A DNA stretch of 16,196 bases. It comes from Candidatus Thorarchaeota archaeon. GTDB lineage: Archaea; Asgardarchaeota; Thorarchaeia; Thorarchaeales; Thorarchaeaceae. A program made the position numbers and the translations under genes. Shown here piece after piece: positions 3,825 through 5,645 of the stretch (the first letter of the stretch is position 1; each line of letters starts with the position of its first letter). Location of the stretch: assembly GCA_046758445.1 (NCBI GenBank), contig JBHIAE010000061.1, positions 1-16,196 on the forward strand, in the 5' to 3' direction. The notes under the pieces were generated by a model, which was not told the origin of the DNA, searched no databases, and saw only the letters and a list, made by a program, of their open reading frames with translations.

Positions 3825-4163
3825 TTGGCCAACGACGCGGAATCCGAAGAATCCCTAGAAGGGAAAGACGACAGCACTGAATCACCAGTTGAGGTTGTCT
3901 TCTTCAAATCCAACACCTGCGCGTTCTGCCCTAGGGCTGAAGAAGTCCTGACAAGCACTCTTGAGGACTTTGCTCCTGGAATGTTCGTGTTGGAGATCAT
4001 CAATGTGAGCCAAAATCCAGAGGCGGCAGAAGAATACGGAATATTCGCCCTTCCCACAATAGTAATCGGTGGGGTATCAGTGACAGGAATCCCAGAACCG
4101 GACATGATCATGAAGATGTTTCTGGGAGCCAAAGTCAGTTCAAAGAGAGGTGCATCCTCATGA
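3825..4163 (+). CDS. Thioredoxin-fold protein with CxxC, KaiB-like
   Basis: CAFC motif and cis-Pro motif ALPT. The segment RAEEVLTSTLEDFAPGMFVLEIINVSQNPEAAEEYGIFALPT parallels cyanobacterial KaiB. TTG start with AGGAGTG upstream; ATGA overlap with the next gene. Confidence 0.85.
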   Translation: MANDAESEESLEGKDDSTESPVEVVFFKSNTCAFCPRAEEVLTSTLEDFAPGMFVLEIINVSQNPEAAEEYGIFALPTIVIGGVSVTGIPEPDMIMKMFLGAKVSSKRGASS

Positions 4164-4906
4164 GCGATTTCACAATAGACCGAGTCAAGACCGGGATACC
4201 GGGACTAGACGAACTAATAGAAGGTGGCTTCCCGCAAGGCGACACTATCCTTGTTGCGGGTAAAGCCGGAACGGGCAAGAGCATCTTGGCGACCCAGTTC
4301 CTCTACTACGGTGCCAAAGAGTATGATGAGCCTGGCGTGCTAGTCACACTCGAGGAGCCGCCTCATCTGATTAGAAGGAACATGATGAGGTTTGGAATGG
4401 ATCTGGCTGCTCTGGAGAAGAAGGGTAAGCTCTCCATAGTAGATCTCTCGCCATCCAAGGAGGTGACTCCCGTGAAGATCGGGGAGTATCCTAGCTTTGA
4501 CCTGTCTGGTCTGGAGGCCATCATCATGAATCACATCAACAAGATCGGTGCCAAGAGAGTTGTGATTGATACTCTAGCGATACTGGCCTACAAGTTCCGT
4601 AGTAGGGATATTCTGCGCGAGGAGTTCTTCAAACTGACAGCTTCCATTACACGAGCAGGCACCACGCTTCTGCTCACGAGCGAGATTCCTGCCCAGGGCG
4701 ATGGTTTAGGTGTATTCGATATCGAAGCATTCTTGGCCTCCGGTGTAGTAGTACTCTACAACGAGATGATCAGTGAAACCTCGAGATCAAGGTCAGTTGA
4801 AGTGCTCAAGCTTAGAGGCTCCAAGCACAGCTCGAGAATTCACTCTATGAGGATTACCGACGATGGAATCCGCGTCTGGCCAGCCGAGATAAGCCCAGGC
4901 GCATGA
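4160..4906 (+). CDS. Single-domain KaiC-family ATPase (CI-like, catalytic motifs intact)
   Basis: RVKTGIPGLDELIEGGFP, Walker A GKAGTGKS, catalytic EE (VTLEE), Walker B VVIDT, arginine-finger KLRGSKH and C-terminal ITDDGIRVWP. Confidence 0.93.
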   Translation: MSDFTIDRVKTGIPGLDELIEGGFPQGDTILVAGKAGTGKSILATQFLYYGAKEYDEPGVLVTLEEPPHLIRRNMMRFGMDLAALEKKGKLSIVDLSPSKEVTPVKIGEYPSFDLSGLEAIIMNHINKIGAKRVVIDTLAILAYKFRSRDILREEFFKLTASITRAGTTLLLTSEIPAQGDGLGVFDIEAFLASGVVVLYNEMISETSRSRSVEVLKLRGSKHSSRIHSMRITDDGIRVWPAEISPGA

Positions 4907-4919
4907 AATTGGAGAATGG

Positions 4920-5645
4920 ATGAGGCGTAGACCCTTGGGTGAGGAAGCGATACCTGGAAGCGGCGAGTCACAGCCAGCAAAAGCTAGACCCATGATTGGA
5001 GACCTGGTCAGGTTTGGACAACTCACACAAGTCTCCTACATGCTGCTTGGGCCTCTTGGGTCTGGTAAGACCACCTATGCGGAGGCATTCCTATACGATG
5101 GGCTCGTGCTTGGATTCCCGGCAGTCTTTGTCACGACAGATGTGTCTCCGAGGGTCGTTAGGAACGACATGAGCCGTCACGGGTGGTCGATAGATGAGCA
5201 CGAACATTCCGGACAGTTTGTGTTCATTGATGGATACTCGGAAAGGATGGGAGCACCAAAACCTAGCTCAGTCCGCTCACTGTCCAAGGTCGACGACATA
5301 AGCGAGCTCGGGATTGTACTCTCCGAGGTCCTAAAGGACCTGGTGGTGGCCCGGGTTGTTGTGGACAGCCTATCAACATTGGTGCTGCACTCGAGTCCAG
5401 CCACAATGCCAAGGGCAGTCCAGCGACTGAGTGGCAGAGTGACACAGAGTTCTCACAGCATCATGTTCATTCTCGAAGAGGGCGTCCACGACGAGAAGAC
5501 CTATGCTACCTTCTCCTACATGTCCGATGCAGTTCTACGCTTCAAGGTGGATGACAGCGATACCGGACCAGTACACAGGATTCGGATGGAGAGAATGCGT
5601 GGCACTGAAACCTCAAGGGTCTGGCACGACTTTGTCATCGAATGA
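4920..5645 (+). CDS. Second single-domain KaiC/RAD55-family ATPase, degenerate
   Basis: Walker A GPLGSGKT, Walker B VVVDS and ERMRGT finger are present. The catalytic EE is replaced by DV (VTTDV), and the N-terminal TGIPGLD element is missing. Confidence 0.85.
   Translation: MRRRPLGEEAIPGSGESQPAKARPMIGDLVRFGQLTQVSYMLLGPLGSGKTTYAEAFLYDGLVLGFPAVFVTTDVSPRVVRNDMSRHGWSIDEHEHSGQFVFIDGYSERMGAPKPSSVRSLSKVDDISELGIVLSEVLKDLVVARVVVDSLSTLVLHSSPATMPRAVQRLSGRVTQSSHSIMFILEEGVHDEKTYATFSYMSDAVLRFKVDDSDTGPVHRIRMERMRGTETSRVWHDFVIE

Follow-up and report, generated by a model that had tools for sequence, protein, structure and literature searches.

A conserved thioredoxin-fold protein encoded with single-domain KaiC genes in Thorarchaeia as a candidate redox-gated KaiC partner

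KaiB is a metamorphic protein whose active state is thioredoxin-like. MglA/MglB and Rag/Ragulator are GTPase-Roadblock pairs. In a survey of Kai systems, KaiB homologues were found only alongside full-length, two-domain KaiC proteins, and none with KaiCs of ~250 aa (PMC5520375). In archaea, KaiC and inactivated KaiC (iKaiC) proteins have been proposed to act as 'signalling hubs' (Makarova, Galperin and Koonin 2017, as cited in PMC5847659). Here we analyze a thioredoxin gene (hereinafter Trx) that is directly followed by two single-domain KaiC genes (KaiC1 and KaiC2) in a window of 16,196 nucleotides, i.e. the whole stretch of DNA examined, which covers positions 1 to 16,196 of contig JBHIAE010000061.1 of the Candidatus Thorarchaeota archaeon assembly GCA_046758445.1. 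That this protein is a conserved, KaiC-dedicated and probably redox-gated partner of thioredoxin fold, resembling fold-switched KaiB (fsKaiB) and SasA's thioredoxin-like domain in its fold and predicted docking, has good support as a hypothesis. To the more specific proposal, that it is a partner of redox-active type in a KaiC ATPase switch and a functional analogue of fsKaiB and the SasA domain, not a member of the KaiB family, we would give about an even chance. A full-text literature search, which did not include the 2017 hub paper, recovered no description of a Trx-KaiC cassette, of a thioredoxin input or of a Ras-like GTPase/Roadblock output.

Trx resembles KaiB in being encoded next to a KaiC and in being predicted to sit on the homologous B-loop, including its Phe/Asp hot spot; it differs from KaiB in its invariant CxxCP motif, in a score that is only at the generic level of the superfamily (22-25 bits), in its separate tree position and in its partners, which are a single-domain KaiC and a separate inactive KaiC with no KaiA. 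SasA's thioredoxin-like domain, a constitutively thioredoxin-folded binder of the KaiC B-loop that undergoes no fold switch, is likewise comparable (match at Z 11.4); however, this domain has no CxxC and is fused to a histidine kinase, whereas Trx is a stand-alone protein with a small GTPase and a Roadblock protein as its apparent outputs. Its best sequence relatives, with which it shares the CxxCP and the cis-Pro, are the MJ0307-family thioredoxins (TIGR00411; 1fo5, 1nho) and the units of protein disulfide oxidoreductases (PDO), but it falls below the equivalog cut-off of that family and is set apart by its own narrow clade, an acidic N-tail, a basic C-tail and a strict KaiC linkage. The archaeal hub proposal shares with this locus a single-domain KaiC ATPase that is paired with an inactivated KaiC-like protein, with putative genes for input and output linked to them. 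Finally, a small Ras-superfamily GTPase encoded beside a Roadblock/LC7 protein recalls the MglA/MglB-type and Rag/Ragulator-type pairs; here, in contrast, the pair is locked to a Trx-KaiC1-KaiC2 operon, and two other Asgard families have a fusion of the GTPase with an iKaiC.

The Trx gene (3825..4163, forward strand) has a TTG start and encodes 112 aa with matches to Pfam Thioredoxin_3 (PF13192), TIGR00411 and PDB 1fo5. Its TGA stop (4161-4163) overlaps, in an ATGA, the ATG (4160-4162) of KaiC1 (4160..4906, forward strand), an intact single-domain, CI-like KaiC ATPase of 248 aa (PF06745, 236 bits). A further 13 bp separate the KaiC1 stop from the start of KaiC2 (4920..5645, forward strand; 241 aa), a nucleotide-binding, probably hydrolysis-deficient KaiC of the iKaiC type (PF06745, 106 bits; DUF7504, 40 bits). 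Both the open reading frame coordinates and the Pfam and NCBIfam matches bear out this arrangement as it had been read from the bare DNA letters in the first-pass annotation, which missed that the Trx-KaiC unit belongs to a larger cassette. That cassette adds a Roadblock/LC7 protein of 129 aa directly upstream of Trx (3336..3725, forward strand; PF03259, 26.1 bits), a Ras/Rab-like small GTPase of 182 aa divergent from the Roadblock-Trx-KaiC operon (2580..3128, reverse strand; PF00071, 177.7 bits) and an α-solenoid/TPR-like protein of 791 aa (5642..8017, forward strand), whose ATG again overlaps the KaiC2 stop in an ATGA. The latter has no confident family assignment: its Pfam match to TPR_12 is weak, and the Atlas leads are all TPR-like with scores below 0.9.

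A synteny scan with one genome per species recovered 67 loci carrying the Trx family, all labeled as Thorarchaeota, 'Promethearchaeota' or uncultured archaeon. As far as the contigs extend, the order Roadblock-Trx-KaiC1-KaiC2 is found in 67/67 of these species-level loci, and the GTPase, the ~790-aa gene and a paralogue of EF-2, which may itself be a cassette member, are kept likewise. The ~790-aa gene is missing only in the most divergent lineage (L008/L009/L077/L122, one genome), in which the GTPase is co-directional with the operon. The same gene order also recurs in every locus examined for Trx homologues, the most distant ones (39-51% identity) included. Of 70 loci, 45 have a 4-bp and 8 a 1-bp overlap of Trx with KaiC1 (53/70 together). 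KaiC1 orthologues are 76-92% identical across Thorarchaeia, being present at 76% identity or more in 69 of the 76 sampled genomes of the host family and in the one genome of its sister family, while the best matches elsewhere in the phylum are at most 49% identical. The Trx-KaiC linkage is hence conserved across Thorarchaeia, with variants in other Asgard lineages described below, and synteny and translational coupling together support Trx as a dedicated, conserved partner of the KaiC genes.

These observations bear on the simplest alternative, namely that Trx is an ordinary housekeeping thioredoxin or glutaredoxin whose place in the operon is incidental and which has nothing specific to do with KaiC. 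Its sequence does group with MJ0307/PDO-type thioredoxins, and the public records annotate the products as 'thioredoxin/glutaredoxin family protein' and 'ATPase domain-containing protein'. Nevertheless, the uniform synteny and conserved coupling overlaps, the confinement of a narrow clade to the KaiC cassette and the complex prediction favoring KaiC1 binding (see below) make this highly improbable; moreover, the MJ0307-family model finds eight further, weaker Trx-like matches elsewhere in the host genome that could do the housekeeping. The first-pass annotation had named grouping with archaeal thioredoxins and a loss of KaiC linkage as findings that would speak against its proposal of a KaiB-like regulator: the grouping is indeed what we observe, whereas the linkage is clearly not lost.

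Trx comprises a disordered acidic N-tail (residues 1-17), the Trx fold (22-110) and the basic C-tail. Its motif C32-A-F-C35-P36 is encoded at nt 3918-3932, and the cis-Pro is P77; the fold, the CxxC at the N-terminus of helix 1 and the cis-Pro loop place it in the Trx superfamily. It passes the cut-off of PF13192 (31.4 bits vs 24.8) and scores 49.7 bits with the MJ0307-family model TIGR00411 of NCBIfam, under the equivalog cut-off of 92.75. Searched as a single sequence against solved structures, it finds as best match the MJ0307 thioredoxin 1fo5 (48 bits, E 1e-11, full length), its CxxCP aligning with the CPHCP of that protein, while KaiB chains score 23-25 bits, equal to E. coli TrxA. The family profile gives 58.9 bits for 1fo5, 47.4 for 1nho and 22.4 for KaiB, which ranks 51 of 52. 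A scan of 1.84 billion representatives recovered a narrow Trx family with five ~110-aa members, followed by PDO-like double-Trx proteins and small thioredoxins. Neither the 57 close nor the 17 divergent sequences, with identities as low as 37%, deviate at C32, C35, P36 or the cis-Pro pair P77-T78; across 59 aligned, length-filtered orthologues, and in relatives of 37-46% identity, the two cysteines and the Pro after them never vary. By these sequence criteria Trx classifies as an MJ0307/PDO-type thioredoxin of a distinct subfamily, and not as a member of the KaiB family.

The likeness to KaiB that had first been noted by eye is real, but it is weak, partial and sub-threshold in the window copy: PF07689 matches with 25.5 bits against a cut-off of 27 and covers only positions 18-56 of its 82, and TIGR02654 yields 22.7 bits against a cut-off of 145.3. 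Across the Thorarchaeial Trx family PF07689 scores 24-29 bits, always over the same partial stretch; it is a secondary match in 57/57 family members and reaches its cut-off in about half of the Thorarchaeial genomes scanned. Such weak matches are not unique to this clade and often turn up in control genomes and in other small thioredoxins: sub-threshold PF07689 matches occur in 7/14 control genomes, and 15 of 32 'generic' small thioredoxins match the KaiB model at E ≤ 0.01, in a control set that the tree shows to be contaminated with close relatives (0.1-0.5 changes/site) of KaiC-linked Trx proteins from other Asgard lineages (P0158, P0156, P0232). The C-terminal, fold-switch half of the KaiB profile finds no match in Trx; the single AlphaFold2 (AF2) model has the thioredoxin order β3-β4-α3, and a second state may exist.

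In a maximum likelihood tree of 57 small Trx-fold proteins, the Thorarchaeial Trx proteins form one clade (support 96/84) inside an unresolved radiation of small thioredoxins. The true KaiBs, of which the tree holds three (a search for homologues of the Lokiarchaeal KaiB yielded two proteins), group apart from it with a cysteine-less Freyarchaeial protein (97/89, long branches). The sister of this KaiB clade is P0213, from a 1.5-kb contig with no informative context, and P0136 is an ordinary thioredoxin that is unlinked to KaiC and encoded beside an aminotransferase. Score, profile coverage and tree grouping thus all stand against membership of Trx in the KaiB family, and the idea that it is an intermediate on the way from thioredoxin to KaiB finds no support, given that hidden Markov model and profile scores ally it with MJ0307/PDO thioredoxins and the tree places it in its own clade away from KaiB.

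KaiC1 has the hallmarks of an active member of the KaiC family (PF06745): the Walker A residues G34..K40-S41, the catalytic pair E65-E66, the Walker B residue D137 and the Arg finger R219 are conserved in 66-69 orthologues. Compared with the clock KaiC 8zn5, it scores 183 bits with the CI and 77 bits with the CII domain; the segment aligning with the CI B-loop has three extra residues, and P111-L118 is invariant. As a single-domain protein scoring 166.7 bits against a cut-off of 546, it is not a circadian KaiC of the TIGR02655/PRK09302 equivalog. In KaiC2, Walker A (G44..K50-T51), Walker B (D148) and R225/R227 (Arg finger) are retained, but D74-V75 stand in place of the catalytic Glu-Glu, within a stretch, T72-T73-D74-V75-S76-P77, that is invariant in 64 orthologues. 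With its KaiC fold and lost catalytic residues it belongs with the DUF7504-type iKaiCs, and the invariant D-V together with the retained Walker motifs and Arg finger makes it look like an ATP-binding, hydrolysis-deficient iKaiC. The label 'degenerate' in the earlier reading was therefore apt for the lost Glu-Glu and inapt for the rest of the site: judged by its alignment, KaiC2 looks like a gene under strong selection, neither decaying nor a detached CII domain. Also rejected was the reading of the two genes as a split clock protein, with a ring built of CI-like and second subunits, because both align best with CI or generic single-domain KaiCs; the closest solved relative of KaiC2 is the single-domain PH0284, not CII.

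The same features weigh upon the idea of a true Kai-type timer, be it an hourglass or an oscillator, in which Trx would be a proto-KaiB on its way to clock KaiB. It could draw on the CI-like character and B-loop of KaiC1, on the KaiB matches throughout the Trx family, about half of the scanned genomes reaching the cut-off, and on a conserved serine of KaiC2, S199, at the T432-equivalent position. Set against these are the family profile (22 bits for KaiB vs 59 for MJ0307 Trx), the union of true KaiB with the Cys-less Freyarchaeial protein in the tree and the lack of a CII-type domain, of KaiA and of an S/T phosphosite pair in KaiC1, where E189-A190 occupy the equivalent position. As had been noted for the window, KaiA also finds no match in the host genome (92.7% complete), which has no other strong KaiC besides the KaiC1/KaiC2 pair. 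With nothing pointing to rhythmicity, a timer function is not supported, and we consider this explanation hardly credible.

Further evidence for a partnership of Trx with KaiC1 comes from structure prediction. An AF2 model of Trx built with an alignment has a predicted local distance difference test score (pLDDT) of 78.7 (a single-sequence model, with pLDDT 40.9, was not used). Structural comparison with VIA-align placed fsKaiB (5jwo_B) third of 999 chains, at Z 12.8 and a root mean square deviation of 1.7 Å over 83 residues, which we count as a tie with the top-scoring thioredoxins (Z 13.4); thioredoxins match the fold at Z 12-13. Values of Z 11.4-11.6 were obtained for Legionella KaiB, for Rhodobacter KaiB in complex and for the SasA N-domain (11.4). 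A complex of KaiC1 with Trx residues 18-112, predicted from 33-row alignments of each, scored 0.75, while the best of three controls scored 0.00; the docking mark used is reached by 58/80 solved complexes vs 2/110 mismatched pairs. The runs share at least 98% of their contacts, with a pLDDT of at least 86 for the partners.

On KaiC1, the predicted interface consists of residues 94, 96, 100, 102-118, 120-121, 123-124, 142 and 145-146, i.e. the B-loop-like segment (residues 97-118, encoded at 4448..4513 on the forward strand) and the helix that starts after it. On Trx it takes in residues 27, 29, 31-34, 37-38, 61-62, 65-66, 68-78, 80, 82-91, 94 and 98, which correspond to the CxxC face, helix 2, the cis-Pro loop and β3-β4. 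The contacts predicted with the lowest error join KaiC1 F113-G117 to Trx A75-P77. F113-D114 of KaiC1 align with the Phe-Asp pair of the KaiC B-loop, mutation of which weakens KaiB and SasA binding alike (10.1101/2020.06.17.158394). Invariant residues make up 21/36 of the predicted Trx interface vs 9/59 elsewhere in the protein. The model thus predicts that Trx docks on the B-loop of KaiC1, the site used by clock KaiB. Of the first-pass claim that Trx regulates a KaiC ring, the dedicated linkage, the invariant CxxC and the predicted B-loop docking are supported, while a ring of separate CI-like and second subunits, in the sense of a split CI/CII, is not supported.

Comparable arrangements recur in other Asgard lineages. 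In Atabeyarchaeia, a CGFC Trx is directly upstream of a single-domain KaiC, and in the Asgard family f18 a CAFC Trx is accompanied by a KaiC and a second KaiC-like gene. In Heimdallarchaeaceae (L138:4666-6321, L139:4453-9225, L145, L146, L149), a two-domain KaiC (456-504 aa) is followed after ~10 bp by a thioredoxin of 82-88 aa with a C[SNG]WC motif, which passes the KaiB Pfam cut-off as a secondary match; Ca. Heimdallarchaeum aukensis has the KaiC-linked Trx arrangement twice, with the Trx copies 3 kb apart. A Lokiarchaeota locus (L150:4569-6829, reverse strand) encodes a canonical Cys-less KaiB (95 aa, 83 bits, profile positions 1-78) beside a two-domain KaiC of 492 aa; an open reading frame of 149 aa preceding them resembles, by eye, a receiver-domain response regulator.

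In Ca. Freyarchaeum deiterrae (G038), a Cys-less Trx-fold protein of 98 aa (L137:6009-6305, forward strand), whose best Pfam match is KaiB at 27.9 bits, above the cut-off, overlaps a single-domain KaiC by 4 bp, and is a better candidate for a 'KaiB with single-domain KaiC' than the window Trx. The KaiC is followed by a fusion protein of 387 aa (L137:7144-8307, forward strand) whose residues 3-223 form an inactive KaiC and residues 226-375 an Arf/Ras GTPase, and a further DUF7504-type KaiC lies downstream. The full-length iKaiC-Arf/Ras fusion is present in 6/6 genomes of the Ca. Freyarchaeum deiterrae family and in another Asgard family, where 5/5 genomes have it (47-50% identity); its adjacency to the KaiB-like gene and KaiC was seen in the one locus examined, L137. 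Such fusions support the view that inactive KaiC and small GTPases are functionally linked, and thereby speak for the Thorarchaeial cassette as one module. Overall, the survey suggests that KaiC partners of Trx fold occur repeatedly among Asgard archaea, and that such a protein can keep this role even when it has no cysteines. In the Borrarchaeum family (L136:5940-6233, L148:4814-5101), thioredoxins of 95-97 aa with a CLFC motif match the KaiB Pfam model above cut-off (31.6 bits, positions 14-56), and these loci have no KaiC within ~5-6 kb; a KaiB-model match alone, therefore, does not predict KaiC linkage.

What, then, might the cysteines of Trx do? Neither KaiC1 nor KaiC2 has a Cys conserved across orthologues, and the window copies have none at all, so that the KaiCs are not disulfide substrates of Trx. 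Since the CxxC is nonetheless invariant and lies in the predicted interface, gating of the interaction by a sensor is the simplest reading, and binding of KaiC1 by Trx is probably redox-gated. Single conserved cysteines do exist elsewhere in the cassette, namely Roadblock C80 (53/56), GTPase C166 (54/59) and C39 (44/54) and C417 (50/54) of the 791-aa protein. These would serve a catalytic role, with Trx a disulfide reductase or oxidase for which KaiC1 is only a platform and one of these residues the client, a role that also accords with a CxxCP and cis-Pro as invariant as in active thioredoxins; but the active-site face is buried against KaiC1 in the predicted complex and would not be free for a client, and the Freyarchaeial counterpart has no cysteines, so that we hold a tethered reductase to be unlikely. 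The opposite possibility is a structural subunit that acts independently of redox state, binding like KaiB or like a processivity factor and keeping its cysteines as an ancestral feature. E. coli thioredoxin is the processivity factor of T7 DNA polymerase; KaiB and the SasA N-domain occupy the same KaiC site without cysteines, the gene of a Cys-less KaiB-like protein overlaps a single-domain KaiC in Ca. Freyarchaeum, and in its fold Trx is no further from fsKaiB than from thioredoxins. The invariance of CxxCP through the 59 orthologues and their 37-46% relatives, however, argues for selection on the redox site itself and renders this option rather improbable.

Several points nevertheless weigh against redox-gated binding of KaiC1 by Trx. 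The Freyarchaeial gene at the Trx position has no cysteines, and the partner function is accordingly not redox-dependent in every lineage. The predicted docking may reproduce the KaiB-CI (5JWO) and SasA-CI (6X61) complexes, which are solved, and it speaks of likeness, not of binding. The active-site face is conserved in any thioredoxin, hence the invariance of the interface is not independent evidence, and of the Trx paralogues of the host, the docking covers this one. As for the wider scheme, co-assembly of KaiC1 with KaiC2 and an output to the GTPase are drawn from gene order and fusions.

With these reservations, redox-gated binding would operate as follows. Translational coupling would let Trx be made in a fixed ratio with KaiC1, and the predicted contact is between its CxxC/cis-Pro face and the B-loop-like segment of KaiC1, which is CI-like. 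The Cys32/Cys35 pair most likely functions as a dithiol/disulfide sensor that would gate binding by altering the docking surface according to its redox state. The active KaiC1 and KaiC2, with its ATP-binding site and Arg finger but no catalytic Glu, might form an asymmetric KaiC assembly, and the output would pass to the co-conserved Roadblock/Ras-like GTPase pair, the coupling to the GTPase being conjectural, and to a TPR-like scaffold. In its most far-reaching form, this would amount to an undescribed Asgard module in which a redox-sensing Trx takes the role of KaiB or SasA on the B-loop of a CI-like KaiC, an active/inactive KaiC pair serves as the switch and a eukaryote-like Ras/Rab GTPase is controlled through Roadblock; we advance this only tentatively, as somewhat doubtful in its entirety.

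Other genes flank the cassette. An EF-2-like GTPase paralogue of 726 aa is a convergent neighbor (8014..10194, reverse strand), with Pfam EF-G domains recognized in homologous loci. On the far side of the GTPase lies a HEAT-repeat protein of 431 aa (1276-2571, reverse strand), which is kept (34-67% identity) in many Thorarchaeial loci, and beyond it a ParA/MinD-like ATPase (454-1272, forward strand). A gene of the ParA/MinD family (Pfam CbiA/ParA), only 27% identical to the window copy in tblastn, precedes the GTPase in L008, of the most divergent lineage. A reading of the locus as a defence system was discarded: Trx, KaiC1, KaiC2, the 791-aa protein, Roadblock and the GTPase match none of the PADLOC models, the HEAT protein beside the cassette has a single weak match (15.7 bits), and the locus is a stable neighborhood of the core genome.

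The findings bear on an evolutionary question, the rise of a KaiB-like KaiC binder from within the thioredoxin superfamily: throughout an archaeal class, a KaiC that is single-domain and CI-like comes in fixed linkage with a genuine CxxC thioredoxin, and this thioredoxin is predicted to sit at the site of KaiB and SasA. As the cassette proteins are small and look soluble, direct testing in vitro is feasible, the central claim requiring just four small proteins. If both the binding and its redox gating are true, Trx would be a natural, redox-controlled KaiB analogue that does not switch folds, would give the archaeal KaiC hubs that have been proposed a specific input, and would link KaiC ATPases to the Ras-like GTPase/Roadblock pairs on account of which Asgard archaea are of interest for eukaryogenesis. 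Should the complete module exist, it would wire the redox state of the cell to small-GTPase signalling, and the Freyarchaeial and Heimdallarchaeaceae variants could then document the origin of Trx-fold KaiC partners and the loss of their cysteines.

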